IMG/VR virus record: IMGVR_UViG_3300045988_166882
DNA length: 64,000 bases
From: a virus
Strand: one strand, 5' to 3'
A program made the position numbers and the translations under genes. The first letter of the stretch is position 1. Each line of letters starts with the position of its first letter. Positions 10,103-47,359 of the stretch are shown one piece after another. The notes beneath the pieces are model-generated. The model was given only the letters and a program-made list of their open reading frames with translations. It was not told the DNA's origin and did no database searches.

Positions 10103-10399
10103 ATGAAAGTGCAAGATTTTTACGGTGCGCTGGCCAAGAAGGCTGGTACCACCAAGGCTCAGGCGATTGAGTTCGTCCGCGCCCTCGAAGAGGTCCTCAC
10201 CGAAGAGGTCCGTGACAAGGGTGAAACTATTCCGCTGGGTAAGGTCGGCAAGTTTGTCCTGAAGGACGTTCCGGCTCGTACCATGCGTAACCCCTTCACC
10301 GGGCAGGACATCGAGACTCGTGCCTACCGGACCATCCAGTTCAAAACGGCGTATGCCATGAGGGCCGACGCTGAAACCGCCAAAAAAGGCAAAAAGTAA
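10103..10399 (+). CDS. HU/IHF-family DNA-binding protein
   Basis: 98 aa. GKFVLKDVPARTMRNPFTGQDIETRAYRTIQFK matches the HU beta-arm signature (R-x-x-R-N-P-x-T-G). Confidence 0.85.
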   Translation: MKVQDFYGALAKKAGTTKAQAIEFVRALEEVLTEEVRDKGETIPLGKVGKFVLKDVPARTMRNPFTGQDIETRAYRTIQFKTAYAMRADAETAKKGKK

Positions 10400-18479: not shown

Positions 18480-18659
18480 ATGGATCAACAACAATTACTG
18501 GCTCTTTTACTCGGAATAGGGTTCTTCTTCGTGATGCCGATTGCTCTTTTCCTGATCGGGTTGTCGAACGCTTCCTCAGATCGCCGTTTACGGCGTTATC
18601 GCGAAGAGTACAAACGAAAGTACGGATTTTATCCACCCGACGAATATTAACAAAATGAA
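18480..18659 (+). CDS. small membrane protein (59 aa)
   Basis: Hand-translated as MDQQQLLALLLGIGFFFVMPIALFLIGL.... Overlaps the next start. Below the ORF-track cut-off. Confidence 0.4.
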
Positions 18660-19242
18660 AACGATCCTCCAACACAACCCCGCCAAACAGGACAACGTCG
18701 AAGCCATGGCCGACGCGCTGGTAGAGTCGATGCGCTTCGCTGACCCTACGGTTGATTATCCTGATATCTCCAAGGCCAAAGCCGACGACGGCGTTCCGGC
18801 CGAGTGGTTCCACAAGGCATACGCCGGCATTACCGGTACGTCGGAACTCACGGCCATTCTTCAGTACACGCAGCAGCGGATGATTTTTGACCAGATTGGA
18901 GAAACGTTCCTCGGTATCGCCCTCACCGAGATGAAGCACTACGACCGATTAGGCGACTTCATCGACCATATCGGGGGCAGCGTATCGCGGCCCGTATTTT
19001 CGGCAGCCAAAGTGGACATTACGACCGAAAGCGCGGCCGAAGCCGTCCAGATCAACATCCGCGCCGAGCAGGACACCATCGCCGAGTACGAGAAACTCAT
19101 TCAGCGTATTCAGGCCAACAACCCTACGCCGACCGTTACATCCACGCTGGCGGTTCAACTTATCAACAAAATCATCGCCGACGAGCGCGTCCACGTGCGG
19201 TTGTTGAGTGAATTGGCGATTATGATCGATGAAACGTTATGA
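18655..19242 (+). CDS. ferritin-like di-metal protein (Mn-catalase/CotJC-like)
   Basis: ELTAILQYTQQ, plus two E-x-x-H motifs (LTEMKHY and ADERVHV). Confidence 0.5.
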   Translation: MKTILQHNPAKQDNVEAMADALVESMRFADPTVDYPDISKAKADDGVPAEWFHKAYAGITGTSELTAILQYTQQRMIFDQIGETFLGIALTEMKHYDRLGDFIDHIGGSVSRPVFSAAKVDITTESAAEAVQINIRAEQDTIAEYEKLIQRIQANNPTPTVTSTLAVQLINKIIADERVHVRLLSELAIMIDETL

Positions 19243-22399: not shown

Positions 22400-22714
22400 A
22401 TGGACCGATGGAGATATTTCAAAATAGGTGATATCGTCACCGACCCCGAAGTGTGGGGAAAGACGATGTTCGTAATACGCACGCTGCACGGTAACGACTA
22501 CTGCCCGCTGATCAGTGGCGAGTCCCTAAAACCGATCCGCGGTCGCCGTATAAGGGTAAACCTCGGCGTGGGGGAGACGCGTCTTGTAAACGCTCCTAAA
22601 CGTCCGTTGATGAAGATTCCCGACGGTACGTTGGTGCGGTTAGCTGGAAAGAGCGTTGAAGCGCGGCGCGAATTGTTAATTAGAAGCTATCGTAAACAAT
22701 ATGGCAACGTTTGA
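22400..22714 (+). CDS. hypothetical protein
   Basis: 104-aa ORF. Confidence 0.6.
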   Translation: MDRWRYFKIGDIVTDPEVWGKTMFVIRTLHGNDYCPLISGESLKPIRGRRIRVNLGVGETRLVNAPKRPLMKIPDGTLVRLAGKSVEARRELLIRSYRKQYGNV

Positions 22715-23711
22715 CCATTATGCTTGGGCTGATAAACTACCCGACGCGTCGCTCGACGTGAGCGCAGAACACCACACGGAGTTCTTCCGGACGATGTTCG
22801 AGCGTCAGATGATATGGAAACGGCGGTTCTTAGATCAGGCTCCGCGCCCGTGGACTGAAGACCCCATACTACGCGACTACAAGTTTACCAACGTCTACCG
22901 CGAACTGGACCGAAACTCCCAGTGGCAAATACGTAATATCCTACTCGATGACGGGTTGACGCTGGCGAATCTGGTGTGGAAGATGATGGTGTTCCGCTAT
23001 TTCAACAATCCCGCCACGTTCGAATACGCTCGCGAAAAGTACGGTTGGGGAGCCGGCATCCCGGATCACGACCAATACGACGAAGACCTCTTTGCCGAGA
23101 TGATAACGTCGTACCGCGCTACGGGTAACAATCCCTATACTACGGCGTATCTGATCAATTCGATGGCCACGCCCGGTAAGCCGCGCGACTACTGCTACAC
23201 GCACTTGGTCGTCCCGACGCTTCACCGTCGGTTAGGCGAACTGATGCGGACGGTGTTGACGGCTGACACTCCGGAGCAGATCATCAAGTTCCTTCAGAGC
23301 CTTCCTTCATCGGCGACGTTTATCGCTCACGAATTCTACCAAGACTTCACCTACATACCGCGTTACACCTATCGCCGTTTTATGCGTTTCACCCAAGACG
23401 ACTACACCAACGTCGGTCCCGGCGCGTCCATAGGGCTGCGGCTGGTGTTTCCGTCGTTGAAGTGCCAAATTGACGGTATCTACCGTTTGCGTGACGAAGC
23501 CCGCGAGGCTCTTCAGCAGTGTGGAGACTTTCCATACCTACATTGGGATCGCGCAGGGCGTTGCTACCGGGTGTCGCGCTGCGGCGACGTGACGCTTCAT
23601 CAAGTTGAGATGTGGCTGTGTGAGTACCAGAAGTACTGGAAGATGAAGATCGGCGAAGGGAAGCAACGCTCAATCTTCGAACCGCGAACTCGTAAAATTG
23701 TAGGCCAATGA
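22701..23711 (+). CDS. alpha-glutamyl/putrescinyl-thymine pyrophosphorylase (aGPT-Pplase)-like protein
   Basis: ERQMIWKRRF..PRPWTEDPILRDYKFTNVYRELDRNSQW matches my recollection of the conserved N-terminal block of this family. Not verified by search. Confidence 0.5.
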   Translation: MATFDHYAWADKLPDASLDVSAEHHTEFFRTMFERQMIWKRRFLDQAPRPWTEDPILRDYKFTNVYRELDRNSQWQIRNILLDDGLTLANLVWKMMVFRYFNNPATFEYAREKYGWGAGIPDHDQYDEDLFAEMITSYRATGNNPYTTAYLINSMATPGKPRDYCYTHLVVPTLHRRLGELMRTVLTADTPEQIIKFLQSLPSSATFIAHEFYQDFTYIPRYTYRRFMRFTQDDYTNVGPGASIGLRLVFPSLKCQIDGIYRLRDEAREALQQCGDFPYLHWDRAGRCYRVSRCGDVTLHQVEMWLCEYQKYWKMKIGEGKQRSIFEPRTRKIVGQ

Positions 23712-24068: not shown

Positions 24069-25829
24069 ATGTCCGGTGTAAAAGAAAGATTGGAATCGGT
24101 AGAACGCGCCATGCAGGCTCTCACGATACGTAAATCGTTGTTGATGGAGCGAGCGTTGCGCAGCGACAACCCGTCCGACATACTCAAAGCCGCTGAGATA
24201 TTCAATCAGCAATCCAAGCCCGCTAACGTTGCTCCGAAGGCGTACCTGATCGACCCTTTGGAGTTCAATTCGTTTTTGGGCTATAAGGATAAGCCGTTTT
24301 CGCTTTCGTACGAAACGCTCCGCCGGATGAGCCGCACCCCCATCATCAACTCAATCCTCAAGACCCGTAAGAACCAGATAGCCGACTTCGCTGAACCGCA
24401 GGCCGACCGCTATTCGACGGGCTTCGTGATTCGCCGTAAGCCCAAGCACGGCCAAGAGCAGAAGATGGATTCACAGGACCGCAAGATCGCGTCTTCCATC
24501 ACCGACTTCATCCTCAACTGCGGCGATACCGCTACGTGGGACGGCGACGAGTTTGATGAGTTTATTCGTAAAATCGTTGACGACTCGTTGACGTTCGACC
24601 AGATGACGTTCGAGTGTATCCGGAACCGCCGCGGCAAACTGGTACGCTTTCAGGCCGTGGACGCCGCTACGTTCCGTCTTGCGGAATCGTACTTCGACGG
24701 CGAGTACAACAACCCGTACTTCGACGGCGCCATGACCGACGATCGCCAAAATTGGGGTCCCAAGGTCGACGGCTATTATCCGGCCTACGTTCAGGTGTAC
24801 CAAACAGCCAAGGTGGCGCAGTTCTATCCGTGGGAGTTGTGCTTCGGTATTCGCAATCCGACCACGTCGATCTACGCCAACGGCTACGGCAACTCAGAGT
24901 TGGAAGAGTTGATCAACGTGGTCACGTCGATGCTTTGGGGTGATGAATACAACCGCCGTTTCTTCTCACAAGGTTCTGCGCCGAAGGGTCTGCTCCGCAT
25001 CAAGGGTAACGTCAACGAGGCGTCACTCCAGCAGTTCAAGCAGCAGTGGCAGGCCATGATATCCGGCGTTATGCAGTCGTGGAAGACGCCCGTCGTTGAG
25101 GGCGATATCGACTGGGTTGACCTCCAGAAGAACAACCGCGACATGGAGTACAACTCTTGGATGGAGTACCTGATCAAGATCGCGTGCGCCGTATTCTGTA
25201 TTGACCCCACGGAAATCGGCTGGGATATTTCACGCTCCAACGGCAGCGGCCTTACCTTCGGCGACGGCCAAAAGCAGCGCATGGAGCAATCGAAAGACAA
25301 GGGTCTCTACCCGATGCTGAAATTCATCCAGCGTAAGATCAACAAATTCATCGTCGAGCAGATCAACCCCGACTTCGAGTTTGTGTTCATGGGCCTCAAC
25401 GGTATGACCATCTCCGAGGAATTGGAGATGGACATCAAACGCCTCCAAGCCTTCCAGACCGTGGACGAGATTCGCGAGAAGTGGGACCTCCCGGCTATCG
25501 GCGAAGAAAAGGGTGGCGATACCATCGAGAACGCCGTCATCCAGCAAGCACTCAGCGCCAAGCAACAGCAGCAACAGGCGATGGGTGGTATGGGCGGCGG
25601 CAACCCGTTCGAAGAGGCTGCGGGTATGGGTATGGAAGTCGCGGGTGGCCCGGCTGATGAACCTGTGGCTGGCGGCGAAGGTGAGGAAGACGATGAAGCG
25701 CAGGCCGGCAACCCGTTCGATCTCTACGCCCAAGGCGACGAAGAAGAAACTATGAAGGCCCGTGAGGCAAATCCGCTCGTGGCCGCATTCGATGAATACT
25801 TACAAAAAGCAATAAACCATGACGAGTAA
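24069..25829 (+). CDS. portal protein
   Basis: 586 aa. NSELEELINV..YNRRFFSQGSAPKGLLRIKG..QQFKQQWQAMISG is portal-like. Acidic Gln/Gly-rich C-terminus. Position downstream of terL fits. Confidence 0.75.
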   Translation: MSGVKERLESVERAMQALTIRKSLLMERALRSDNPSDILKAAEIFNQQSKPANVAPKAYLIDPLEFNSFLGYKDKPFSLSYETLRRMSRTPIINSILKTRKNQIADFAEPQADRYSTGFVIRRKPKHGQEQKMDSQDRKIASSITDFILNCGDTATWDGDEFDEFIRKIVDDSLTFDQMTFECIRNRRGKLVRFQAVDAATFRLAESYFDGEYNNPYFDGAMTDDRQNWGPKVDGYYPAYVQVYQTAKVAQFYPWELCFGIRNPTTSIYANGYGNSELEELINVVTSMLWGDEYNRRFFSQGSAPKGLLRIKGNVNEASLQQFKQQWQAMISGVMQSWKTPVVEGDIDWVDLQKNNRDMEYNSWMEYLIKIACAVFCIDPTEIGWDISRSNGSGLTFGDGQKQRMEQSKDKGLYPMLKFIQRKINKFIVEQINPDFEFVFMGLNGMTISEELEMDIKRLQAFQTVDEIREKWDLPAIGEEKGGDTIENAVIQQALSAKQQQQQAMGGMGGGNPFEEAAGMGMEVAGGPADEPVAGGEGEEDDEAQAGNPFDLYAQGDEEETMKAREANPLVAAFDEYLQKAINHDE

Positions 25830-29412: not shown

Positions 29413-31488
29413 ATGAAAGAAGTTATCAACTACGGCGAAGCACGTCGCCAGCAAATTCTTAAAGGGTTCACCAACGTCGAGGAGGTCGCGGACGAGCCGA
29501 TCGAAAAAGCGCGTCACGGTGTCTACGCCGACAACGCTCAAAACCGTCGTCTGCAGCGCGTGGGACAGGAGTACGGTCAAGCCGCCAAGGAAGACCCCGA
29601 AGGTGAAGGCCAGGAGGGCGGTATGCCTGAGGGCAACGTCAGCCTCCAGAACCACGCTCGTCAGGCTTCAGAAGAGGCGCTGACGAAGGTCGCCAACGAC
29701 CCGCAGGCTGACCCCGAAATGCGCAAGGTGGCTACCGCTGAATTGGAACGCCGCGGTGTAAGCGTTCGCGCCAAGAACAAGAACGGCGACACTTCGCTGC
29801 GTAACGGGTTGGCTGACGGTGACGCCAAATCGGCTTCGACGTTCGAGGGCATGGGCTTCCGCCAGATGGACGATCAGGACCTCCAACAGTACGCCGGAGT
29901 TGAGGACGCTTCGCACGCCTTCATCAAGCAGATCGGCAGTGACGAAGACGGCTTCGACCTTGTGGTCACCAAGACCAGCGAGGGCTACCGCGTGGACAAA
30001 TACCCTTACGCCGACGTGGACAATTTCGAGTCGGTGACGGTGAAGGAGATTGGCGACGTTGAGGGAGCCGCGTCTAAGTTTGGTGATCCCGATGCCAAGG
30101 GTAAGGGCGGCAAAGCCGACGCCGCATCGCTCGTTGACAGTTTCAACGCTATGGCTGAGGGCGATGCAGACTTCGACGCCAAGTCGTTCAAATCGTTCGT
30201 GAAGGAAAAAGGCGGTAAGGCCGTGAAGGAAATCGCCGACGCCATTCGTAAGATGCCCAGCGAGGCCGGGCAAAGCGATCTGGCTGACGACGAGATCGCC
30301 GACATGATCGAGAATATGTTCGAGGAAGCCGGAACGCGCGTTCCGCGTGAGGCCAAGAAGGAACTCGACAACCTTCGCGGGTCGGGTGAAAGCGTTCTGG
30401 CCAAGTGGGACGCCTACACTTCGGAGTCGGGTGAAGACGATGACTTCAGCGCAGCGCTCGAAAGCCTCATCGACAACAAGGGCGAGGCTAAGGCCATCAA
30501 GGAACTCGCTGCCGCTATCAAAACCTCCGGTCAAGGTGAGGCCGCTCAGAGCGATATCCTCGACGACGAAATCGCTGACGAAATCGCCAATATCTTCGAA
30601 GAGGCCGGAATCGACCTGTCGAAGAAAGGTCAAGCCGCGCTCGACAAGATGCGTGCTGACTCGGACGGCGACGGTAACGTGAGCAGCGCCGAAGGTCTGG
30701 TCCAGAGTTTCGACGACATGGCCGAAAACGACACCGACTTCGACACCGCAGGCTTCAAGTCCTTCGTGAAGCAGAAGGGTGACGCCGCGGCTATCAAGGA
30801 ACTGGCCGCAGCCATGAAAGCAAACCCGGCTGATACCGGCGGTGCTCAGTCCGACGCTACGGACGACGAAATTGCCGACACCATCGCCAATATGTTTGAG
30901 ATGGCTGGTGTGAAGGTATCGAAGGACGGCCAGAAGGAACTCGACGCGCTGATCGGCGGCGAGGAGGAAAGCGCCACCAAGCAGGGCGAAAAGGCCGACG
31001 CCGCAGCCAAGGCTGAAGTGAAGAGCGCTGAAAAGGGTGCTAAAGCCAAGGCCGACAAAGCCGCGAAGTCTTCGCCTGAGAAGGACAACGCCGCCGCCGA
31101 CAAATTCATCAAGAAAAGCGAAAACGGAGCCAACCCCTCTGAGTACGCCAAGATGATCTCCAAGAACCCCGAAGGTATCGCCCGCGTGCTGAAGGAAAGG
31201 ATCGCTTCCGGCGACAAGGCCGCTAAACGCGCTGCTCTGAGTCTCACTTCGCTCATCGACCCGGAGTCCCGTGAGAAGGGTGTCGGCCAAGAACTCCTCA
31301 GCCACCCCGAACTCAAGAAGATTGCCGACGAACGTGCCGCAGCGCACAAACTGCTGACGGGCGTGTCTTACGACGATATGGACACGTACAAGAAGAAGTC
31401 AGACGAGCAAATTGAGATATTCAAACGTACCAACAAGGAGTTCGTCGACAAGTTCCTGGAGATTTACGGCGGTAACACCGAAGAGTAA
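29413..31488 (+). CDS. acidic repeat-containing protein (691 aa), possible internal virion or scaffold-like protein
   Basis: Long Asp/Glu/Ala/Lys-rich ORF with three ~93-aa tandem repeats. The minus-strand 559-aa ORF is a shadow. Confidence 0.75.
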   Translation: MKEVINYGEARRQQILKGFTNVEEVADEPIEKARHGVYADNAQNRRLQRVGQEYGQAAKEDPEGEGQEGGMPEGNVSLQNHARQASEEALTKVANDPQADPEMRKVATAELERRGVSVRAKNKNGDTSLRNGLADGDAKSASTFEGMGFRQMDDQDLQQYAGVEDASHAFIKQIGSDEDGFDLVVTKTSEGYRVDKYPYADVDNFESVTVKEIGDVEGAASKFGDPDAKGKGGKADAASLVDSFNAMAEGDADFDAKSFKSFVKEKGGKAVKEIADAIRKMPSEAGQSDLADDEIADMIENMFEEAGTRVPREAKKELDNLRGSGESVLAKWDAYTSESGEDDDFSAALESLIDNKGEAKAIKELAAAIKTSGQGEAAQSDILDDEIADEIANIFEEAGIDLSKKGQAALDKMRADSDGDGNVSSAEGLVQSFDDMAENDTDFDTAGFKSFVKQKGDAAAIKELAAAMKANPADTGGAQSDATDDEIADTIANMFEMAGVKVSKDGQKELDALIGGEEESATKQGEKADAAAKAEVKSAEKGAKAKADKAAKSSPEKDNAAADKFIKKSENGANPSEYAKMISKNPEGIARVLKERIASGDKAAKRAALSLTSLIDPESREKGVGQELLSHPELKKIADERAAAHKLLTGVSYDDMDTYKKKSDEQIEIFKRTNKEFVDKFLEIYGGNTEE
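30121..30960 (+). repeat. three tandem coding repeats of about 279 nt
   Basis: Units share D-x-DFD..FKSFVK.KG.A.AIKE[IL]A.A[IM]K....G.AQSD..DDEIAD.I.N[IM]FE.AG...S/P...K.LD. Confidence 0.7.
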
Positions 31489-32196: not shown

Positions 32197-32726
32197 CAAA
32201 GGCTTTTCACGAGGCCAGCCGATATCGCGCCGATCACTTACGTAAGGCCCTTGGTGGTTTTACGGAGAACGGCCTGATCGAAAAGGGCCGTTCAAAGAGC
32301 GGTCGCTACGCCAACACGGCTGAGAATCGAAGAAAGGGACGTGTTGGCATGCCTTATGAAAAGAAAGGCCGTGGACCAGCGCCACACCAGCGTCGAGATT
32401 CTGAACATCGCCGAAACGGTACGTATATTCGTACGCTTACTGCAGGTGACGGGAACGAGGCTCTCGAAATAGGCGAAGACGGCGTTGCTCGTAATGATTT
32501 TTACGACAACCAAGAAGTCGGCAAATACACCAAGAAATACGAAAAAGTCAACAACGGAGACAAGGTTCGTTATGGTAGTAGAATCTATACCGTTTACGCC
32601 ACAAAGAACTTAACCGAAGGCGGGGTAACAACGCAATTCGTTCAATTCACTGGTAAGCCTTCTTACAGTGGTGCTCCGCGTGGAACGGGCAAGTGGGTTC
32701 CCCGAAAAGACGTCGAGAAACTATGA
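32178..32726 (+). CDS. hypothetical basic protein carrying the Y-A-[DN]-x-A-x-N-R-R-x-x-R-V-G motif
   Basis: 182-aa ORF. GRYANTAENRRKGRVGMPY at 32301-32357 parallels HGVYADNAQNRRLQRVGQEY in the gene at 29413. Confidence 0.6.
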   Translation: MQVDEVTKAFHEASRYRADHLRKALGGFTENGLIEKGRSKSGRYANTAENRRKGRVGMPYEKKGRGPAPHQRRDSEHRRNGTYIRTLTAGDGNEALEIGEDGVARNDFYDNQEVGKYTKKYEKVNNGDKVRYGSRIYTVYATKNLTEGGVTTQFVQFTGKPSYSGAPRGTGKWVPRKDVEKL

Positions 32727-33655
32727 TTTTCAACAATCGCCAAATAGACGACATGGTCGGCATTCTCCGGCGTTGGCAGTACCTGTTTATTGCCAAGCAC
32801 GTCGGATTAGACTTTCTGACCCAGTCGGAGATCGACATCTTGGTGGCGTCAGGGGTCAACGTCGATAAGTACAAGAACACGAAAGGTATCATCGAACACG
32901 CTTTTCTGTTCGGTATCTTGGCTGAGGCACTCGGCGATCAACGCGCCAAGAAGATGAATTACAAGCAGTTTCTCCAGTACCTCAAATCAGGAAACTTCGT
33001 TCCGCTCACCGAGCAGGAGGAGAACGCGCTGAATTATCTCAAGAACCGCGCCTACACCGACATCACGTCGCTCGGAAACCGTATCGTTACCGGTACGCGC
33101 AACGCCATCCTCAAATCTAACTTTCGTCAGCAAGCCGCCATACGCCAGCAGATCAAAGATAAGGCCATGCAAGCCGTCCAACTGCGTAAGGGGGCGCGGT
33201 ATATAGCCAGCGAATTGGGGAACCTTACCCAAGACTGGGGACGCGATTGGCTGCGTATTGCGTACTACCTTCTGCACGAAGCCTACAACGTGGGCCGCTC
33301 GGAAAGTATCTACAAGCAGTATGGCCCCGACGCTATGGTGTATTTCGACGTATACCCCGGCGCGTGTGCCAAATGCCGCGAGTTGTACTTGGAGGACCCC
33401 GAAGACCCTAATTCGAAGCCAAAACTGTTCCGCCTCGGAGACCTTATCGCCAACGGTAACAATATCGGCCGTAAGGTGGCTGAGTGGCTTCCTACGATCG
33501 ACCCGACGCACCCCTACTGCCGCTGTACTATCAACCACGTACCGCCGGGGTACGAGTGGGACCCTGAAACACGCGCTTTCACCAAGCCTGTCAAGCGTCA
33601 GTTCAAGAACCCAAAGTTAAGGAACGTGAAACTCAACATTAAAGTAACAAAATAA
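32723..33655 (+). CDS. MuF-like minor head (head morphogenesis) protein
   Basis: CAKCRELY...IDPTHPYCRCT matches the SPP1 gp7/Mu F signature (HPxCRC). The ATG at 32723 overlaps the upstream stop. Confidence 0.65.
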   Translation: MIFNNRQIDDMVGILRRWQYLFIAKHVGLDFLTQSEIDILVASGVNVDKYKNTKGIIEHAFLFGILAEALGDQRAKKMNYKQFLQYLKSGNFVPLTEQEENALNYLKNRAYTDITSLGNRIVTGTRNAILKSNFRQQAAIRQQIKDKAMQAVQLRKGARYIASELGNLTQDWGRDWLRIAYYLLHEAYNVGRSESIYKQYGPDAMVYFDVYPGACAKCRELYLEDPEDPNSKPKLFRLGDLIANGNNIGRKVAEWLPTIDPTHPYCRCTINHVPPGYEWDPETRAFTKPVKRQFKNPKLRNVKLNIKVTK

Positions 33656-34614
33656 TGAAAAACAAAATCGTACAAGACCCCCCGTTCACCATGCAGATCG
33701 AGCCGACCGAGGGTTGTAACTTGGGGTGTTCGTTCTGCGGCCTTCACGGCATGCGTGAAAAGGGTACCAAACCGTGGAATTTCATGACCGTCGAAACCGC
33801 CGAGCGTATCGCTTCTGAGGTAGCGCGTGTGGGCTGGAATTGCAAGTTCGTGTTCGCTATGCACGGCGAACCCACGCTCAACCCGGCGTTCATCGACATC
33901 GTGGCCACGTTCCGCAAGCACTTGCCGAAGGCCGTGTTCCATATGTACAGCAACGGCTACGCCATGAACCACGCCGACGACACCGAGGCTTACCTCGACC
34001 GCCTGTTCGGCGCTGGCATGAACGACATCTTGGTGGACTGCTACACCGCCAACGGCGACTGGAATTTCGTCGAGAAGATCGATGTCGATAAGTACAACGT
34101 CGTCACGCTGGAACCGGGCGTTCCGTACTACTACCCCAAGCAGGGCCGTCGTATCTGCTTGCTGCCGCCCATCGCCCAGGACGATACCAACAAGATGACG
34201 CGGCGTCTGGCCAACCACTGCGGCGCGGCGTTCCCGCTCGACGATTCGTTCAACAACAAGCGTTGTACTTTCCCGTTCCGGGAACTGGACGTGCGCTGGA
34301 ACGGTCAGGTCTGCTTGTGTTGTGACGACTTCCGCGGTGAGTACCCCATCGCCAACATCCACGACATGCCCATCGAAGACCTTTGGAACCACCCGCGCTT
34401 CCACGCCGCTCGCGTGATGCTGTACAATAACGACCGCCGCTTCCGCCCGTGTCAGGGGTGTACGCACGTCAGCGTTCGCGTTGGCTTCCTGCCTGACAAG
34501 AAGGGTAAGCAGACGCTGCCGGCTATCACGCCCGAAATCCGCCGTATGGCTGAAGAGGTATCGAAGGACGGCCCCTGCGCCGAGAAGATTTACCGACGGC
34601 CATGGGAAAAATAA
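33655..34614 (+). CDS. radical SAM enzyme with SPASM/twitch-like C-terminal Cys cluster
   Basis: CNLGCSFC (CX3CX2C), HGEPTLNP, and C-terminal CTFPF..GQVCLCCDDF..PCQGC. Confidence 0.8.
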   Translation: MKNKIVQDPPFTMQIEPTEGCNLGCSFCGLHGMREKGTKPWNFMTVETAERIASEVARVGWNCKFVFAMHGEPTLNPAFIDIVATFRKHLPKAVFHMYSNGYAMNHADDTEAYLDRLFGAGMNDILVDCYTANGDWNFVEKIDVDKYNVVTLEPGVPYYYPKQGRRICLLPPIAQDDTNKMTRRLANHCGAAFPLDDSFNNKRCTFPFRELDVRWNGQVCLCCDDFRGEYPIANIHDMPIEDLWNHPRFHAARVMLYNNDRRFRPCQGCTHVSVRVGFLPDKKGKQTLPAITPEIRRMAEEVSKDGPCAEKIYRRPWEK

Positions 34615-35282
34615 AGTACCTTTGTGTCGAGTCTCAAGCGGGTGATCTCCTGATGAGTGCTTGTCACGTTTTAGTAGCACCTGAATATGACGTTCGGGTG
34701 CTTACTGTAGATAACGCCCCAAAGCCTTTGGCTGAGCAGCAGCGGTTGTACGATTTTCTGGGTATCGGGATGGACCGCTTGGACTTAGAGTTAGAAGATG
34801 TCCGTTGTGGCGATTTTAAGGCCCATTCTGCGGACTGCAACTACGAAGGCGTCTATACGTACCTTCGCGCGAAATACGGGAACGACGGACTTAATTTCGC
34901 CGAACAAACGCTTCGCGATTACCTGCGTAAGTTTATGCGCCGCAACCCCGGTTACGTGATACTGGCGCCGCTGGGGTCGGGACACCCCTTCAACCAGTTC
35001 GTTCACGATGTGGTGTTTGATACGGCGTCGGCGGCAGAATACTATCGCGACTTTCCATATTCGTACGTACCACGGGGTCGTGAACAGGTCAGGGTCCAGT
35101 GCTACGGCGGCGAAACTTTACTGATGAAACGCCGAGTTCCGTGCGACGATATGTTCGACGTGAAGTGGGAACTGGCTATGCGCTTCTACCCGTCGTTATC
35201 GCCGACGATACGCAAGTATCAGCGTTTTATAGAACAAAACCCGCCCGAAGAAATCTGGTACGAGGGCGATTTACCATTTTAA
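34602..35282 (+). CDS. hypothetical protein, possibly PIG-L/LmbE-fold (deacetylase-like) with a degenerate metal site
   Basis: Three blocks are collinear with PIG-L: LCVESQAGDLL..VRVLTV, QQRLYDFLGIG, and PGYVILAPLGSGHPFNQFVHDV. The HPDDE motif is not conserved. Confidence 0.55.
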   Translation: MGKIKYLCVESQAGDLLMSACHVLVAPEYDVRVLTVDNAPKPLAEQQRLYDFLGIGMDRLDLELEDVRCGDFKAHSADCNYEGVYTYLRAKYGNDGLNFAEQTLRDYLRKFMRRNPGYVILAPLGSGHPFNQFVHDVVFDTASAAEYYRDFPYSYVPRGREQVRVQCYGGETLLMKRRVPCDDMFDVKWELAMRFYPSLSPTIRKYQRFIEQNPPEEIWYEGDLPF

Positions 35283-35285
35283 GCT

Positions 35286-36089
35286 ATGGATTGTCAATTC
35301 TTCGTCGTGTCCAAGAACCGCCCCAAGTGCGTCACGACCAAATTGTTGGAAAAGGGCGGCGTCGACTACCACATCGTGGTCGAAAAGGAAGACGTTGAAA
35401 AGTACGTCGAAGCAGGTCACGACCGTAAGCGGTTGATCGTACTACCAGCGTCGAACCGCGGCTACAGCTACGTGGTCAATTTCTGCAAGAACACCTACCT
35501 CCGCGCCGGGCGGCCTGTGGTGGTGATGGATGACGATATCGCCAACTTCTTCTACTCGATCGACGGCGAAGCCAAATGCGGCCTTTCGCTGAAGACCCCA
35601 GAAGAACTGTCAGAGTTCTTTGAAGAGTTCAACCGCGAAGTCATGGAGACCGACTTCGAGTACGGCACCATGGGCAAGAGCGCCTTCGACTGGAGTTGTA
35701 CCGACGTCAGCCCGCGTTTCAAGTACGGCGGTATCCCTCACCTCATCGTGTTCAAAGGGCTGCGGACGCTGGAGTTGGACTTTGACGAAAAGTTGGAGTT
35801 GAAGTGCGACATCGACTATTCGTTGAAGTGTATGTATCTGGGCATCGTCTACGCACGCTTCGTACGCTTCCTTCTCCAGAGTAAGATGAACAAGGAGGCA
35901 AATCAGGGCGGCGGCCTTCAAGACGTGTACGAGCGTCAGGAACGTGTTCAGCGTGCTCACAACATCATATTGAAGCGGTGGCCGCTGAACGCCCGTGTCG
36001 ATGACAAGAAGAAGCCCATCAACGGCGTACCGGAGTTACGTATTGTGTACAAGAAATTTGATATTGACTTTGATGCGGTGGAGGTGTAG
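35286..36089 (+). CDS. GT-A-fold glycosyltransferase-like protein (paralogue of 17098-17913)
   Basis: FVVSKNRP, NRGYSYVVNF, VVVMDDDIANF (DxD). Confidence 0.55.
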   Translation: MDCQFFVVSKNRPKCVTTKLLEKGGVDYHIVVEKEDVEKYVEAGHDRKRLIVLPASNRGYSYVVNFCKNTYLRAGRPVVVMDDDIANFFYSIDGEAKCGLSLKTPEELSEFFEEFNREVMETDFEYGTMGKSAFDWSCTDVSPRFKYGGIPHLIVFKGLRTLELDFDEKLELKCDIDYSLKCMYLGIVYARFVRFLLQSKMNKEANQGGGLQDVYERQERVQRAHNIILKRWPLNARVDDKKKPINGVPELRIVYKKFDIDFDAVEV

Positions 36090-36124: not shown

Positions 36125-37873
36125 ATGTCAGACAATATCCAAAAAGCAAAGCACAACGTCGGCGATCATCATCCTACGCAACCGTGGGTGTGGACGGAGT
36201 ACAAGCCCGGAAAGTTCAACTGGCGTGTCGACAAGAACGCCAAACCCAAGGACAACGCCGATACCGGTAAACAATCGACAGGCGGCGGCGCCACGAGCCT
36301 CGAAGAGTGGGCTAAGCGTACCACCGACGACAACCTGCTCAAAGTAGTAAACAACCCCAAAGGTAACGCGCAGTTGCGGCAGATTGCCTACAACGAACTG
36401 AAGTCACGTAACGCCGATCTTTTGCAGGTCGATACAAGCGGTACGTTGGCCACGCTGTTGAAGATGACCACCCAGCAGGACCCCGTGGCACCCACCAACG
36501 CCGCGGCTAAAGTAGACATCAACGACGGCGAGGGCGGAAACGACGACGGTGAAATCGTTGAAGACTGGTTCCTCAACCCTGACGACCCGCGCATTCAGAA
36601 GAAGTTCAACAAACTCCAAAGCCGTCAGGACCGTATTGCGTACGACCGCTTCGTCTACGCGATGAAGAAGAAGGACCCTGACTACCAGCCGCCTGTTGAG
36701 GTGATGTACGACCTGAACCGCCAGTATCTGGAGTTCTTGGACAACAAGGAGCAGCGGTTCATGATCTCGGCTGGTGGTGCCGGTATCGGTAAATCGTACG
36801 GTTTCAAGAAAATCGCCGAACTGCTCAACAAGCGTCCGTTTGACGCCGAAACCGACGCGCCGGGCGATGGCGACTATGACTACGTTGAACTCGGTGACAT
36901 CAACTCCAAGAAGCAGCTGCTGGGCGTACTCAAAGCCCACAACGGCAAGATTCTTCTGTTCGACGATACCGACTCCGTTATCACCCGCGCCGACTTGGCT
37001 TCCATCATGAAGAAGGCCACTTCCGCTTCAGGTAAGCGCGTGGTCGGAGACCCGGACGACGTCAAGTCGAATTTCGTATTCACGGGCCGTATCATCATCA
37101 TGACCAACAAGGACCTCGTGAACCTCGCCAAGAACGAGGATGCCAAGGCTATCATTTCGCGCGCTACGCTGACGTCGGAAGTCTACCTGACCGTTGACGA
37201 GACGATCGAGGTTCTGAAGGACCGCTACGAAGACATGGACGTTCCCCAGCAGCCGCACCTCGATGACCCCGAAGAGGACAAGCAGGAACGTAAAGAACTG
37301 TTTGACCTTATTGTCAAGAACAAGAATAAGATCGACCCTGCCAAGTTTACCACCCGTACCTTTGGCACCATCTTGTCGGAGAAGCGTTCTGCCGACCGCG
37401 CTAACAAGCGCGCCAAGCAGGGCGGTCAGTGGACAAACCTGATCGGCAGCCAGCAAAAGGAGTGGGAACGCGCCGCCGTTCGTGCACTGACGAAGGGACT
37501 CGCGTACGAGGCCATTCAACCCGTCGAAACGTCGGATGATATCAGTAAGGCCGAAGCCCTGCTCAGCGACGCAGAATCGCTCGAAAAGGCCGATTTTACC
37601 GAAGAGCAGCGTGAGAAACTTGCCAAGAAGAAGGAGGCCCTCCCTGACGGCTCGTTCCCGATTCGTAACAAGTCCGACCTGAAGAACGCCATCCGTCTTG
37701 CTGGTAACGCCAAAAACCCCGAACGCGCTCGGCGCTGGATCAAACGCCGCGCCAAGTCGCTCGGTGCTGAGGATATGATCCCCGACACGTGGAAGGCTCA
37801 GACTACTGACCTCGGTTCGCTGCCGGCTGACGACATGTCGATCGAAAAGGCTGAAACCCTCTTGTTCGGATAA
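36125..37873 (+). CDS. P-loop (AAA-like) ATPase domain protein (582 aa)
   Basis: Walker A GGAGIGKS, Walker B ILLFDDTD, then FTGRIIIMTN. The C-terminus carries FPIRNKSDLKNAIRLAG. Confidence 0.7.
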   Translation: MSDNIQKAKHNVGDHHPTQPWVWTEYKPGKFNWRVDKNAKPKDNADTGKQSTGGGATSLEEWAKRTTDDNLLKVVNNPKGNAQLRQIAYNELKSRNADLLQVDTSGTLATLLKMTTQQDPVAPTNAAAKVDINDGEGGNDDGEIVEDWFLNPDDPRIQKKFNKLQSRQDRIAYDRFVYAMKKKDPDYQPPVEVMYDLNRQYLEFLDNKEQRFMISAGGAGIGKSYGFKKIAELLNKRPFDAETDAPGDGDYDYVELGDINSKKQLLGVLKAHNGKILLFDDTDSVITRADLASIMKKATSASGKRVVGDPDDVKSNFVFTGRIIIMTNKDLVNLAKNEDAKAIISRATLTSEVYLTVDETIEVLKDRYEDMDVPQQPHLDDPEEDKQERKELFDLIVKNKNKIDPAKFTTRTFGTILSEKRSADRANKRAKQGGQWTNLIGSQQKEWERAAVRALTKGLAYEAIQPVETSDDISKAEALLSDAESLEKADFTEEQREKLAKKKEALPDGSFPIRNKSDLKNAIRLAGNAKNPERARRWIKRRAKSLGAEDMIPDTWKAQTTDLGSLPADDMSIEKAETLLFG

Positions 37874-37876
37874 CCC

Positions 37877-40261
37877 ATGGACGAACTGAGAAAAGCGCTG
37901 GAAACTTTCGCCCTCCGTAACGCCGAGGGCGAAGTTTCTGACGCCATGCTGGAGAAGGCGTGTGAGGCGTACAAGGTTCGTTCTTCAGAGTTCGTCGACG
38001 ACTACCAGTATAACCTGTACGTGGCGAAGTCCGTCTACGATCACCTCCATGGCGTCGATCAAGACCCTGAAATTTCAAAGGCTATCATGCCCGGCCAGAC
38101 TAAGGTTGTCGATGGCGTGGTGTATATTTGGACGCTTACCCCTAACGCCAAAACGAAGTACGACTGGCGAGTTTACAAGAATCCTCAAGGTACACCCGTT
38201 GGAAAGGGTCCTTTTCGCTCTAAAGCCATATTAGAACGGCAGCAGAAGGAAGTGAACGAAATGTTCCCCGCCGACCCCTCTGAATTGACCTTCGTTCAGA
38301 AACTGGGCGGTTCTACGGGGGCTGAGTTGATGAAAGACGCCAAGGGCCGTGAGTTCGTCGTAAAGAGTTCTAAGAACACCACCCGCGGTCACATCGCAGC
38401 GGAGTACTACGCCGCGCAGGTATACAGCCTTTTGGGGTTGGACACGCCTGACTATGAAATGTACGACGACGGAACGGACCTCGTGTTGATATCGAATTAC
38501 ATGCGCGGCATGTCCGAACCTCAAGTTAAGGACTACGACACCATGGCTAAAGGCTTTGTCGTTGACGCCTTTTTGGCCAACTGGGATATTTACAAAAACG
38601 ACAACTGCTTGGTTGACGCCGCTGGTAAAGTCTACCGCGTCGACAACGGTAGTACGTTTGATTACCGTGCCCAAGGAGCCAAGAAGCCTTTTGGCAACCA
38701 AATCGACTGGGATAACATGGTGCGGTACAATTCCAGCGTGGTTGCCAACCTCAAGCCGCAGGACTTCATCGATCAGATTGACGCCCTGAAAGCCCGTAAA
38801 GACGAAGTATTGGCGTATTTTGACGCCGGAAGGCTCGGTTCCAAGCCGAAGATGCGCGCCATCATTGAGGCTCGTTTCAAAGACCTCGACCGCATCCGCG
38901 GTATTTATGAGATAGAAGTACGTCGTACCAGCAGACAAGTTGCGCCCCGAACGCTCAAGTCTCCGGCAGATATGTACCGCGACTTCACCGAAGATGAGAT
39001 CAATGATTTTTGGAATAATCAGCCCGGAGCCGATTATTACCAAAAGTTACAACGTCACAGCGGCCATACGGGGTGGGAACTGCTCTCTACCATTTGTAGC
39101 GCTCGTGGCTTTGATGCGCGGCCTGATGTAGTCGACGACGCTACGTTCTTCGCCAAGGCTGCTCAGAATAAGTATCATATGTTCCGGGGAGTGGAACGTA
39201 ACGGAACGGATAAAAACTACTACGCCGACGACTTCAAGTACAACGACGCTTGTTACTACGGAACTGTTGGTGTGTATGCTGAAGGAATCTATTTCCATGT
39301 GAACGATTCGTCTAACGCCGACCGCACTCCATCCGGCTATCAGAAGACTTCGGCTTATCACAACGCTCGCGGTTACGCGGGTAGTGGTGCCATTATCGAG
39401 GCAGTTCTCGACGACAGCGCCAAGGTCATAACCGTTAATGACGCTCGTGAAGAGGTCAAGCAACTGTCTGCCGGTAATTCACCTGCTTTCCAAAAGGCAA
39501 AAAAAGAACTCGACGACGCCAAGGCCGAATACCAGCGCGTAACCGACGAACTCAACAACCTTACCGACACTACCGAAAAGAAGGTAAAGTCCGATATGCA
39601 CTGGGACGACGCTTCGTACGTCGATATCCCGTTACAAATCGACCAGATTATCGACTGGGGTGCCATCGACGATGACGGCAACCCGGCATACATGAAGTTT
39701 GACGACTTCATGGATAATCACCTAAAAGGCTGGATCAAGGCTAACGGCGGTACTATTACGGCCAAGGGTGGAGGCACCGACGACTACGTCATCAAGATGC
39801 CTAACACCAACGAACGGTTCGTCTTTTCGCGCTTTCGGTACGAGAACGACGCTATCAAACGTAAGAACGCATTTGCGCGTCCGTACAACTATCCCGTTCG
39901 CCAGCTGAAGGAATGGATCATGCGCGAGCACTTCGGTAAAATTGAAGATGCCGTAAAGAGTGCCATCAACAACTTGGATGACGAAGTGAAACGTTTGCAG
40001 GGCGAACAGCGCAAGGCGTATGTCGATTACAAAGACAAGGACAACGCCATGAGCAAGTTGAGCGTAAACGCCGTTGGTGATCCTGATAAGGACATCTATG
40101 CTGCCATCTACAAGAACGTTCATAAGGACGGCGAAAAAGAAGCACTGGGCGTATACGCTGCTTTGAAGGGATATGACGCCCTTATTCAGCCTAACGGAAA
40201 CGGTTCCGGTAACTCGTTCATGATCGTGTTGAATCGCTCTAAAATCATTACTCGTAAATAG
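37877..40261 (+). CDS. large multidomain protein: PI3/4-kinase-like or protein-kinase-like domain plus ART-like domain
   Basis: KGREFVVKSSK...DAFLANWDIYKNDNCLVD..GKVYRVDNGSTF resembles a kinase catalytic loop. HMFRGVE...GVYAEGIYFHVN...IIEAVL resembles the ADP-ribosyltransferase R/G-x-G-I-Y-F/E pattern. Confidence 0.7.
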   Translation: MDELRKALETFALRNAEGEVSDAMLEKACEAYKVRSSEFVDDYQYNLYVAKSVYDHLHGVDQDPEISKAIMPGQTKVVDGVVYIWTLTPNAKTKYDWRVYKNPQGTPVGKGPFRSKAILERQQKEVNEMFPADPSELTFVQKLGGSTGAELMKDAKGREFVVKSSKNTTRGHIAAEYYAAQVYSLLGLDTPDYEMYDDGTDLVLISNYMRGMSEPQVKDYDTMAKGFVVDAFLANWDIYKNDNCLVDAAGKVYRVDNGSTFDYRAQGAKKPFGNQIDWDNMVRYNSSVVANLKPQDFIDQIDALKARKDEVLAYFDAGRLGSKPKMRAIIEARFKDLDRIRGIYEIEVRRTSRQVAPRTLKSPADMYRDFTEDEINDFWNNQPGADYYQKLQRHSGHTGWELLSTICSARGFDARPDVVDDATFFAKAAQNKYHMFRGVERNGTDKNYYADDFKYNDACYYGTVGVYAEGIYFHVNDSSNADRTPSGYQKTSAYHNARGYAGSGAIIEAVLDDSAKVITVNDAREEVKQLSAGNSPAFQKAKKELDDAKAEYQRVTDELNNLTDTTEKKVKSDMHWDDASYVDIPLQIDQIIDWGAIDDDGNPAYMKFDDFMDNHLKGWIKANGGTITAKGGGTDDYVIKMPNTNERFVFSRFRYENDAIKRKNAFARPYNYPVRQLKEWIMREHFGKIEDAVKSAINNLDDEVKRLQGEQRKAYVDYKDKDNAMSKLSVNAVGDPDKDIYAAIYKNVHKDGEKEALGVYAALKGYDALIQPNGNGSGNSFMIVLNRSKIITRK

Positions 40262-45871: not shown

Positions 45872-47359
45872 ATGGACAGACTTTCTATCAATCTCGCCGA
45901 CTATGGCATCCAAGCGCGTGGTGCCCAGTACGGCTCGTCCAGTCAGGAAGAGGTCGCTGCGCTGAACAAAGCCCTCGAAGCCACCGACATCACGGGTCGT
46001 CAGACGACGAACCTTACCGATGCCTCCGGTGCGCCGCTGAAGGTGGAGTCGCTGGAGCGTACTCTGAAGCACCTGACGTTCCGTGAGAGCGACATCGTTC
46101 TCTGGAAGAACCTGCCGAAAAAGGCCGCCTACAACACCGTTGAGGAGTACAACCAGTTGGCATCGTACGGTGCTGACCGCGGTGGCTTCACCAACGAAGG
46201 CGAACTCCCCGACGAGGAAGACTCGATCTACATCCGTCGGGCTCAGCTGGTGAAATACCTCGGCGTCACCAAGTCGGTTACGCACCAGATGACCCTCGTC
46301 AACACGATGGTGGGCAACATCATGGAGCGCACCATCAAAGACGGTACGCTGTGGATTCTCCGCAAGCTGAACAAGTCGCTGTACTACGGCAACTCGGACA
46401 TCATCCCGCAGGAGTTCAACGGTCTGCTGGCTCAGCAGCTGCAGTCGGACGCATGGAGCGGTCTGGACGCTTACCTCAACTCTGAGAACGTGATCGACCT
46501 TCGCGGTCGTGGCCTGACCGAGGACCCCATCGAGACGGCTGCCAACTCGATCGTCGAGAACTACGGCCTCGGAACCGAGCTGTATGCTCCCCCCGCCGTT
46601 CTTTCGGACTTCGTCAAGACGTTCTACGGCAACAAGTTCATCCAGCCCAACACCGCCCAGACCAGCGCCGGTATCATGGGTCAGCGCGTTCAGGCGTTCG
46701 ACTCGCAGTTCGGCCGCATCGGCCTCAACTACGACGTCTTCTTCAAGAAGGCTCCGTTCAAGGTTGCTGGTGCTCAGTCGACGCATCCCAAGTCGCCCGC
46801 CGCTCCCGTATGGGACACCGCCGCTCCGGCTACGGTTGTTGCTGACGTGACGACCTCGAAGTTCAACTCGGAGGACGCTGGCAACTACATCTACGCTATC
46901 GCAGCCATCAACCGCCACGGCGAGTCGTCGCTGGTGGTGAACGAGACTCCGGTGGCCGTGACTGCGGGGTCGGTCGTTGACCTCAAGTTCTCGATCGTGG
47001 ACAACGCTCACCCGGCTACGGGTTATCGCGTGTACCGTTCGAAGAAGGGTGGCGACAAGAACAGCAAACTGTACCCGATCTTCGACATCTCGGTGGCTCA
47101 GCTGAAACTGGGTTACGCAGGGGCTGCCGGCGATCTGTGCCGCGATAACAACTACTTCCTGCCCGACTGCGATCAGGCCTTCCTGGTTCAGTTCGACAAC
47201 GAAGTGATCGAGTTCGCTCAGCTGGCTCCGCTGATGAAGATGGACCTCGCGATTCTGTCGCCTGCGTACCGCTTCATGGTGCTGCTGTACGGTACGCCGT
47301 TCCTGTACGCGCCGAAGAAGTTGGTCCGCCTGATCAACATCGGACGCGCCTCCAACTAA
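45872..47359 (+). CDS. major capsid protein (HK97-fold by position)
   Basis: 495-aa ORF directly after the protease/scaffold gene, followed by a strong hairpin. Confidence 0.7.
   Translation: MDRLSINLADYGIQARGAQYGSSSQEEVAALNKALEATDITGRQTTNLTDASGAPLKVESLERTLKHLTFRESDIVLWKNLPKKAAYNTVEEYNQLASYGADRGGFTNEGELPDEEDSIYIRRAQLVKYLGVTKSVTHQMTLVNTMVGNIMERTIKDGTLWILRKLNKSLYYGNSDIIPQEFNGLLAQQLQSDAWSGLDAYLNSENVIDLRGRGLTEDPIETAANSIVENYGLGTELYAPPAVLSDFVKTFYGNKFIQPNTAQTSAGIMGQRVQAFDSQFGRIGLNYDVFFKKAPFKVAGAQSTHPKSPAAPVWDTAAPATVVADVTTSKFNSEDAGNYIYAIAAINRHGESSLVVNETPVAVTAGSVVDLKFSIVDNAHPATGYRVYRSKKGGDKNSKLYPIFDISVAQLKLGYAGAAGDLCRDNNYFLPDCDQAFLVQFDNEVIEFAQLAPLMKMDLAILSPAYRFMVLLYGTPFLYAPKKLVRLINIGRASN

Follow-up and report, generated by a model that had tools for sequence, protein, structure and literature searches.

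A radical SAM, PIG-L-fold and TAGT glycosyltransferase cassette among the head genes of an uncultured phage, with a possible role in building and remodelling a sugar on DNA

What would a radical S-adenosylmethionine (SAM) enzyme, a deacetylase-like protein and a glycosyltransferase be doing side by side among the head genes of a phage? We sought to answer this question for three consecutive genes of the virus record IMGVR_UViG_3300045988_166882, an uncultured phage of ~100 kb, in a stretch of 64,000 nt that we call the window. The three products are referred to as rSAM, ORF2 and TAGT2. An earlier note on this DNA had recognised the trio by its motifs, had likened it to the enzymes BtrM, BtrD and BtrN, and had named DNA or structural proteins as possible targets. 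With a confidence that lies a little above even, we favour the reading in which the three genes form a cassette, expressed late, for building and remodelling a sugar on the phage's own DNA.

The first product, rSAM, contains the motif CNLGCSFC at residues 21-28 (CX3CX2C, nt 33715-33738) and HGEP at residues 70-73, and towards its C-terminus CTFPF (204-208), CLCCDDF (220-226) and PCQGC (265-269), in a twitch region spanning ~nt 34249-34485. These are the motifs from which a radical SAM enzyme with a C-terminal auxiliary Cys cluster had been proposed, and profile searches bore the proposal out. Pfam Radical_SAM scored 58.4 bits (cut-off 29.5; E value 1.3e-15), Pfam SPASM scored 47.3 bits (cut-off 21.5; 2.6e-12), and an NCBIfam twitch subfamily model matched residues 201-272 at 2e-10. 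Just six Cys are invariant in the C-terminal half of the protein (C189, C204, C222, C223, C266 and C269), and the CX2CX5CX3C motif of two-cluster SPASM domains is absent from rSAM, which argues for the one-cluster twitch type. Among solved structures the top match was BtrN, the 2-deoxy-scyllo-inosamine dehydrogenase of butirosin biosynthesis (PDB 4m7t), with an E value of 1.7e-8 from the rSAM sequence alone and of 2.2e-16 from a five-sequence family profile; anSME came second at 5.8e-7 with the family profile. The alignment with BtrN takes in both the core and the twitch domain, and the four auxiliary-cluster Cys of BtrN align with C204, C223, C266 and C269 of rSAM. Both proteins are small (~320 residues for rSAM and 250 for BtrN), have a single auxiliary cluster and carry no peptide-recognition domain, whereas the invariant C189 (in NHCGAA) and C222 are extra in rSAM. 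The gene is under strong constraint, with a ratio of nonsynonymous to synonymous substitution rates (dN/dS) of 0.032 among close relatives. Judged by its sequence, rSAM is a radical SAM enzyme that resembles BtrN and whose one auxiliary [4Fe-4S] domain is of the twitch type.

The likeness to BtrN does not amount to orthology, as the similarity is remote and no NCBIfam equivalog cut-off was reached. No aminoglycoside genes were found in the ~97% of the genome that was scanned, and in contrast to the setting of BtrN there are no genes of a 2-deoxystreptamine pathway here, the context being a putative phage DNA-modification cassette. From this comparison rSAM may work in the manner of BtrN without being a member of its family. 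The other activity raised by the earlier note, cross-linking of peptides, found no backing. Since the cluster motif starts at residue 21, rSAM has no N-terminal peptide-recognition domain, and since the genes neighbouring rSAM overlap, there is no space for the open reading frame (ORF) of a precursor peptide. The protein has no PqqD-like recognition domain of the kind used for RiPPs, peptides that ribosomes make and that are modified after translation, it has one auxiliary cluster and not two, and it scored far under the cut-offs of the NCBIfam peptide maturase models. The family to which rSAM belongs comprises at least 390 clusters, all of them metagenomic and on phage-sized contigs of ~90-125 kb, and the sole names attached to its members are generic, for example 'Iron-sulfur cluster-binding domain [Caudoviricetes sp.]'. 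Searches of 50,697 deposited phage genomes by tblastn returned no homologue of rSAM and none of TAGT2, and a DNA-level search (blastn) found no relatives in deposited phages.

The second product, ORF2, could be placed through its family and not by a direct profile match. Scans of ORF2 against Pfam, PHROGs and NCBIfam returned no match, and a profile made from only its close relatives found nothing in the PDB. An exhaustive profile search collected 78 family representatives. Pfam PIG-L matched 13 of the 50 family members scanned (best 3.7e-16), and the family profile aligned over its full length with the teicoplanin-type deacetylases Dbv21 and Orf2* at 5.7e-10. An AlphaFold2 model built on a 50-sequence alignment (predicted local distance difference test, pLDDT, 92; predicted template modelling score, pTM, 0.90) was matched by Foldseek to the teicoplanin deacetylase 2xad (E 3e-7, template modelling score 0.63), and also to viral LmbE-like proteins in BFVD. 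An earlier model built on a 9-sequence alignment (pLDDT 66) was discarded; its Foldseek matches were only generic Rossmann folds. On the strength of the family profile and the later model, ORF2 is by fold a member of the PIG-L/LmbE deacetylase superfamily. It shares the fold of the teicoplanin Orf2*/Dbv21, MshB, BshB and BtrD deacetylases and is collinear with them over the full length, and differs from them in that its family is phage-specific, escapes direct recognition by Pfam and is fused to rSAM or to a TAGT in relatives. Glycosyltransferase and deacetylase pairs are known from MshA/MshB, BshA/BshB and BtrM/BtrD, and ORF2 is likewise paired with a glycosyltransferase.

The active site of ORF2 is degenerate. 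Most members of its family keep the zinc motifs PHxDD and HPxH. Nearly all have PH(S/P)DD and G-H-P-x-H, which supply the zinc ligands and the general base in PIG-L enzymes, and every lineage other than the window's retains PHSDD or PHPDD together with HPxH. In the window copy these zinc and catalytic motifs are replaced by SQAGD (nt 34632-34646) and GHPFN (nt 34980-34994), so that H-x-D-D has become Q-A-G-D and HPxH has become HPFN; its clade has P-H-A-G-D and H-P-F-N, with S-Q-A-G-D in the window copy. Throughout the clade the general-base Asp has become Gly and the third ligand His has become Asn, two zinc ligands are lost, and the His-Asp-His triad with its general-base Asp is accordingly missing from the window ORF2. 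Replacement of the HPDDE site in a 226-residue PIG-L-collinear protein, as the earlier note had described it, is thus a property of the whole clade. The leftover His drift among 23 unique close relatives, being H or Q at position 12 and H, N or Q at position 128. The reading frame nevertheless stays intact in all 23 unique variants, Asp15 and the block YYRDFPYSY are invariant, and the dN/dS of 0.153 indicates purifying selection, with a constraint 5-7x weaker than on rSAM or on TAGT2 (0.023). The degenerate subtype appears to be old, because P0013, only 35% identical to ORF2, has it too. No second PIG-L copy was found in the scanned part of the genome. Since the site is degraded and drifting and purifying selection persists, ORF2 is probably a pseudoenzyme, a non-catalytic partner kept for binding or scaffolding, and with such a site a literal BtrD-type deacetylation is unlikely in the window phage.

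The third product, TAGT2, carries SKNRP at residues 9-13, NRGYSY at 57-62 and the DxD-type motif DDD at 82-84 (nt 35529-35537). A GT-A-like glycosyltransferase had been proposed from these motifs, and both Pfam TAGT (PF20691; 51.8 bits, cut-off 27.5) and phrog_842 ('beta-glucosyl-HMC-alpha-glucosyltransferase'; 1.8e-18) agree with it. By these profiles TAGT2 is a TAGT-family GT-A glycosyltransferase, and both assignments that the earlier note had exposed to profile searches, PIG-L and GT-A, survived them. The window encodes a second, very divergent member of the family, TAGT1 (Pfam TAGT 2.4e-14; phrog_842 4.6e-28), which has no BLASTP similarity to TAGT2 and is homologous to gp22 of the cultured phage PhiJL001. 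The TAGT family takes in the beta-glucosyl-HMC alpha-glucosyltransferase of phage T6 (PMC13390438), and its TET-associated members transfer glucose or N-acetylglucosamine (GlcNAc) onto 5-hydroxymethylcytosine (5hmC), to which a second glycosyltransferase adds another sugar, so that GlcNAc on DNA has precedent (PMC8256090).

If the three genes belong together functionally, then their association should recur in distantly related genomes. We therefore examined the 20-kb neighbourhoods of sixteen distant rSAM loci (39-63% identity). In 14 of the 16, rSAM adjoins a PIG-L gene, a TAGT gene or both, at two different genome positions: ten are PIG-L-adjacent, four are TAGT-adjacent without PIG-L, and two have neither. 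In L135, rSAM lies beside dUTPase without an adjacent glycosyltransferase, and in L141 it lies alone. Natural fusions join rSAM to PIG-L in P0016 (one contig) and PIG-L to TAGT in P0022 (two contigs), L127 and L138. The co-occurrence on which the earlier note had staked its case is therefore found in other genomes, with fusions besides. At the first position (type A) the order is MuF-like gene, rSAM, PIG-L, a variable gene, a 582-aa P-loop protein and a 794-aa protein. The variable gene may be TAGT2, a ~480-aa possible GT-B enzyme, an N6/N4 DNA methyltransferase together with the ~480-aa gene, or an FkbM-type methyltransferase together with a PIG-L::TAGT fusion. The ~480-aa gene, which replaces TAGT2 in many relatives, matches Glycos_transf_1 at an E value of 0.009 (below the cut-off) and nothing in the PDB, and by eye there is a hint of a GT-B-like protein. 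At the second position (type B) the order is terminase, rSAM, TAGT1-type gene and dUTPase. The TAGT1-type gene follows rSAM in L128, L132 and L134, and the order is reversed in L142. The window phage has the type A cassette, and at its type B position TAGT1 and dUTPase without rSAM.

Other arrangements extend this pattern. In L144 (6940-10993) an FkbM-type methyltransferase, a degenerate PIG-L, a TAGT1-type gene, an intact PIG-L and a TAGT2-type gene follow one another with no rSAM there, which makes two tandem pairs of deacetylase-fold protein and glycosyltransferase in which degenerate and intact PIG-L coexist. More distant PIG-L homologues adjoin GT4 genes, among genes for helicase, topoisomerase and TnsA-like nuclease. 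Taken across these sequences, the trio is one arrangement of a combinatorial cassette. The three genes are indeed consecutive and coupled, as the words 'gene trio' had implied, but they are no fixed unit, and the members swap among relatives. We also note that in L127 (7441-10942) two rSAM paralogues flank a PIG-L::TAGT fusion.

We next asked which acceptor the glycosyltransferases would meet. The aGPT-Pplase/AADT-like protein of the window, which has no P-loop, is a hallmark of systems that hypermodify 5-hydroxymethyldeoxyuridine (5-hmdU). Searches with it by tblastn found matches in ViI-like, Yua/M6-like and PhiJL001 phages, one of them annotated aGPT-Pplase1, and its gene is kept upstream of the portal gene in relatives. 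The dUTPase-family enzyme would, by homology, supply dUMP or exclude dUTP. For the ~37 kb outside the window we used as proxy the closest full-length contig, IMGVR_UViG_3300045988_134865 (90-98% nt identity). It encodes PolIII-alpha, helicases, primase, a RecA-like protein and a 405-aa thymidylate-synthase homologue. Among annotated proteins this homologue is closest to the dUMP hydroxymethylases that SPO1, SP8 and SP10 encode (41-47% identity); its best solved relative is the hydroxymethylase MilA, and it has Asn in place of the Asp of cytosine-specific MilA. The TAGT genes are thus associated, by way of the proxy contig, with a source of 5-hydroxymethylpyrimidine, and PhiJL001 shows the same pairing in a cluster of aGPT-like gene, TAGT and SPO1-like hydroxymethylase. 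The portal protein is closest to those of Chryseobacterium phage MA9V-3 and SPO1-like phages, and SPO1-like phages carry hydroxymethyluracil (hmU) DNA. With the hydroxymethylase present in the closest full-length relative, the DNA of the window phage probably contains 5-hmdU, and 5-hmdU or a derivative is most plausibly what the two TAGTs glycosylate. The suggestion that the trio acts on DNA together with the aGPT-Pplase-like gene has accordingly gained support from the second TAGT, the dUTPase and the relative's hydroxymethylase. Two further genes belong to the same setting. A YfbR-like HD 5'-deoxynucleotidase adjoins the PolIII-alpha gene on the proxy contig, upstream of the window (L053:2743-3552), and by analogy with hmU phages is a candidate dTMP/dNMP nucleotidase that would exclude thymidine. 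An HU/IHF-family DNA-binding protein is encoded at 10103-10399 of the window (Pfam Bac_DNA_binding 5e-17); we considered it as a special relative of SPO1 TF1, which prefers hmU DNA, and rejected this, as it is simply HU/IHF-like.

These components can be arranged into a pathway on DNA. The SPO1-type dUMP hydroxymethylase would make 5-hydroxymethyl-dUMP, a step supported by homology, and 5-hmdU would replace thymidine, probably with help from the dUTPase and the HD 5'-deoxynucleotidase. After replication, a UDP-sugar would serve TAGT1 and TAGT2 as donor of a hexose or N-acetylhexosamine, which they would attach to the hydroxymethyl group in a base-J-like linkage, to the first sugar, or to both. 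In most relatives a zinc-dependent PIG-L deacetylase would then convert GlcNAc to glucosamine; in the window clade, ORF2 would most likely have no catalytic role and would, as a sugar-binding or adaptor subunit, keep rSAM and the glycosyltransferase on their substrate. Finally, rSAM would abstract a hydrogen from a sugar carbon and pass the second electron to its auxiliary cluster, turning a secondary alcohol into a ketone, with radical epimerisation or dehydration as close alternatives. The outcome would be DNA bearing a rare sugar, which would block restriction enzymes, CRISPR nucleases, and those nucleases or glycosylases that target simpler glucosyl bases. A more detailed version, in which a gut-phage lineage makes base-J-like glycosylated hmU and a twitch rSAM rewrites the sugar on the DNA by oxidation, epimerisation or C-C chemistry, with PIG-L or its dead descendant presenting the substrate, is possible, and we hold it only tentatively.

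Several points weigh against the pathway. The base (hmU), the sugar, the order of the steps and the rSAM reaction are all things that we infer. The hydroxymethylase lies on a close relative and outside the window itself, membership of the TAGT family is by itself no proof of a DNA acceptor, and the remote likeness to BtrN is little guide to the substrate of rSAM. ORF2, whose loss of activity is probable, might still hold a metal through its Gln, Asp and Asn. No 5-hmdU DNA kinase (5-HMUDK), TET/JBP, pyridoxal phosphate (PLP)-dependent aminotransferase or sugar-nucleotide genes were found in the scanned genome, and since there is no kinase or aminotransferase, the pathway as drawn accounts neither for the fate of a keto sugar nor for the role of the aGPT-like protein; of the components of canonical thymidine hypermodification, the aGPT-Pplase/AADT homologue is present, and the P-loop 5-hmdU DNA kinase and the PLP enzyme are missing. 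Finally, the cassette is always found among virion genes.

This last point is the starting place for a different explanation, in which the target of glycosylation or cross-linking is a virion protein (capsid, MuF-like or ejected). Such a target would explain the place in the head module, given that the cassette always either follows the terminase or has the MuF-like gene on one side and large, putatively packaged proteins on the other, and that it is predicted from its junctions and the lack of a terminator to be co-transcribed with neighbouring virion genes. The SPASM/twitch enzymes also include modifiers of proteins and peptides, among them anSME. The earlier note had likewise named a virion protein as a possible target, on the ground that SPASM enzymes cross-link peptides. 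This lineage, however, habitually puts nucleotide-metabolism genes among its packaging and head genes, dUTPase and the aGPT-like gene being in the same late region, and since such genes are scattered through that region, the location is weak evidence for a protein target. The characterised members of the TAGT family all act on DNA-linked acceptors (PMC13390438, PMC8256090), the features of peptide maturases are missing from rSAM, distant PIG-L and glycosyltransferase pairs sit in replication modules, and in relatives a DNA N6/N4 methyltransferase takes the place of TAGT2. We therefore regard modification of a virion protein as quite improbable. Chemistry directed at the host or at a small molecule, that is, remodelling of a host envelope glycan for superinfection exclusion or synthesis of an aminoglycoside-like metabolite, is less probable still, to the point of being very remote. 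A set of glycosyltransferase, PIG-L and BtrN-like enzyme does follow the logic of aminoglycoside, mycothiol and bacillithiol pathways, and the analogy to BtrM, BtrD and BtrN has fared well in that, among solved structures, BtrN is much the closest to rSAM, and ORF2 falls in the superfamily of BtrD. Against this stand the DNA-associated type of the glycosyltransferase, the restriction of the family to phage contigs of ~90-125 kb, and the fact that no cyclitol, aminotransferase, export or membrane-associated genes were found.

The remaining two alternatives concern the order and the number of steps on the way to the same kind of product. In one, the substrate of rSAM, working alone or together with the PIG-L protein, is a soluble precursor, either a free nucleotide sugar (UDP-GlcNAc, for instance) or some other compound, and a TAGT then uses the unusual donor so made to modify DNA; the end product would again be a rare sugar on DNA, with the radical step before transfer. 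Many sugar-tailoring radical SAM enzymes, BtrN included, use small soluble substrates, and the loci in which rSAM lies beside dUTPase or alone would fit this order. The characterised PIG-L enzymes (MshB, BshB, BtrD and teicoplanin Orf2*), by contrast, deacetylate GlcNAc that is already on its aglycone, the PIG-L fusions to transferase and to rSAM fit a shared, already transferred substrate better, and no genes of nucleotide-sugar synthesis were found in the scanned genome. Remodelling of the donor therefore seems unlikely to us. In the other, ORF2 is still an active hydrolase with an altered metal site made of Asp15 with Gln/His12, Asn131 and His128, and the full sequence of transfer, deacetylation and oxidation would run; this is compatible with the favoured pathway on DNA, and we rate it as rather unlikely, with a slightly better chance than remodelling of the donor. 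The frames that stay intact, the dN/dS of about 0.15, the invariant Asp15 and YYRDFPYSY block and the age of the degenerate subtype speak for activity. If these residues were catalytic, then variation of His at 12 and 128 among close relatives would not be expected; the whole clade has Gly for the general-base Asp and Asn for the third ligand His, the constraint is weaker than on the two partner enzymes, and the degenerate copy beside an intact one in L144 suggests a division of labour.

Comparison with known systems helps to place the favoured pathway, sugar building and remodelling on DNA. It resembles the TAGT two-glycosyltransferase systems in having two divergent paralogues per genome (Burke et al. 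2021, PMC8256090). Those systems build disaccharides on 5hmC and are known without sugar-tailoring enzymes, whereas no TET/JBP or C5-methyltransferase was found here and the hydroxymethyl pyrimidine is probably 5-hmdU made before replication. With the thymidine hypermodification of phages M6, ViI, PaMx11, SP10 and PhiW-14 (PMC5889632, PMC8989533) it shares the dUMP hydroxymethylase, the aGPT-Pplase/AADT-like gene and a post-replicative mode, but not the kinase or PLP enzyme of M6/ViI-type pathways. In M6, the spore-photoproduct-lyase-like gp53 is a radical SAM enzyme that acts on a DNA-linked moiety, isomerising a glycine adduct (Lee et al. 2018 and 2021; PMC5889632, PMC8989533), and no other radical SAM enzyme is reported as installing a modification in DNA. 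The rSAM of the window is unrelated to gp53, and its context implies sugars rather than amino acids. Base J of kinetoplastids (PMC13229309) resembles the predicted first product, a hexose placed on the hydroxymethyl group of hmU by a GT-A enzyme. It differs in that base J starts from the oxidation of T by JBP, whereas hmU here would be made at the nucleotide level by a hydroxymethylase; for the phage we also predict further tailoring, and a role in anti-restriction in place of control of transcription. The tunicamycin pathway has the same three enzyme classes in TunB (radical SAM), TunD (glycosyltransferase) and TunE (deacetylase), working on a uridine-linked sugar scaffold, and TunB forms a C-C bond between nucleoside and sugar, a possible alternative chemistry for rSAM. 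Unlike the phage cassette, the pathway makes a small-molecule antibiotic in actinomycetes, and the likeness is one of enzyme class; the searches brought up no solved structure or family model for it.

In the literature searched, no paper came up that gives a twitch radical SAM enzyme or a PIG-L protein a part in modifying DNA, nor one on the combination of the trio in any phage. As a proposed phage DNA hypermodification system, the cassette would bring two enzyme classes that are new to the field, twitch radical SAM and PIG-L. Phage DNA hypermodifications govern cutting by restriction enzymes, CRISPR nucleases and modification-dependent nucleases, and they also decide if such genomes are open to sequencing and engineering. 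The pathways known so far add sugars, amino acids or polyamines, and radical rewriting of a DNA-borne sugar is undescribed in the literature searched. If the more detailed version of the pathway is true, a glycan on DNA would for the first time be seen to be tailored by a radical SAM enzyme, and a PIG-L enzyme and pseudoenzyme to take part in modifying nucleic acids; the system would also be a new class of DNA hypermodification. Since the rSAM clusters all lie on phage-sized metagenomic contigs, the chemistry would be widespread in nature and absent from cultured phages. It would yield new enzymes for site-specific engineering of DNA glycans, and would show plainly how an enzyme has become a pseudoenzyme within a pathway of a virus.

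The layout of the locus is summarised in Table 1. The window is the late (packaging, head and tail) region of a myovirus-like phage, and the landmark genes bear out the position given for the trio, between the portal and major capsid protein genes. The stop codon of the upstream gene lies within TAATG, which also contains the rSAM start (overlap 1 nt), rSAM and ORF2 overlap by 13 nt, and the TAA of ORF2 is followed by a 3-nt spacer, GCT, and the ATG of TAGT2. These junctions are compatible with translational coupling, and no terminator-like site with a convincing T-tract was found on the + strand inside the trio.

Table 1. Positions of the cassette, its borders and other genes of the window
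Feature	Coordinates (nt)	Strand	Length (aa)	Remarks
Large terminase	14361-17078			intein-containing
TAGT1, second TAGT-family glycosyltransferase	17098-17913	+		directly after large terminase
dUTPase-family enzyme	17910-18473	+		phrog_135 2.7e-29; Pfam dUTPase 2.4e-11
aGPT-Pplase/AADT-like protein	22701-23711	+		Pfam 'HMUDK_hel' 6.9e-50
Portal	24069-25829
Putative MuF-like head protein	32693-33655	+		HPYCRC motif (nt 33509-33526) and position; left border of cassette
rSAM gene	33655-34614	+	319
ORF2 (PIG-L-fold gene)	34602-35282	+	226
Glycosyltransferase gene (TAGT2)	35286-36089	+	267
P-loop protein	36125-37873	+	582	GGAGIGKS; right border of cassette, conserved by synteny
SU10-type major capsid protein	45872-47359
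Baseplate J	62352-63614

The gene before rSAM is adjacent to it as described earlier, and its synteny is kept in all type A loci; the label 'MuF-like' itself depends on a motif and on position, with zero Pfam or PHROG matches. The P-loop protein at the other border matched AAA_30 at 0.005 only, and phrog_1250; its tblastn matches were all to proteins annotated as hypothetical, from Chryseobacterium, Bacteroides and jumbo phages, which hints at a Bacteroidota host. We considered it as a 5-hmdU DNA kinase and rejected this, as it has no match to the ViI or M6 kinases. In relatives it is always followed by the 794-aa protein (37877-40261 in the window), which has no Pfam or PHROG match and contains a kinase-like catalytic-loop pattern (DAFLANWD ... 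DNGSTF) and, further on, one that resembles ADP-ribosyltransferases (FRGV ... IIEAV); an effector that is packaged or ejected is a possible role for it. A very acidic protein of 691 aa (29413-31488), whose gene lies between the portal-proximal genes and the one for the MuF-like protein, contains long internal repeats, three in number (...DDEIAD.I.NMFEEAG...), and could serve as scaffold or internal head protein. A ferritin/rubrerythrin-like gene lies just downstream of the dUTPase gene (18655-19242) and at the same place in a distant relative (L135:11441-12055), and its product may have an iron-handling or redox role tied to the Fe-S enzyme. The product of 3991-4542, with a weak match to Fer4_12 (4Fe-4S single cluster domain; E 0.0065, below cut-off), may be a further Fe-S protein or an activase-like fragment. 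The terminase intein consists of a Hint domain and a LAGLIDADG homing endonuclease, after which the terminase nuclease domain restarts at ~aa 732, and homing-endonuclease-like genes with NUMOD3 (11558-12436 in the window; L052:911-1762) occur in several divergent copies across relatives.

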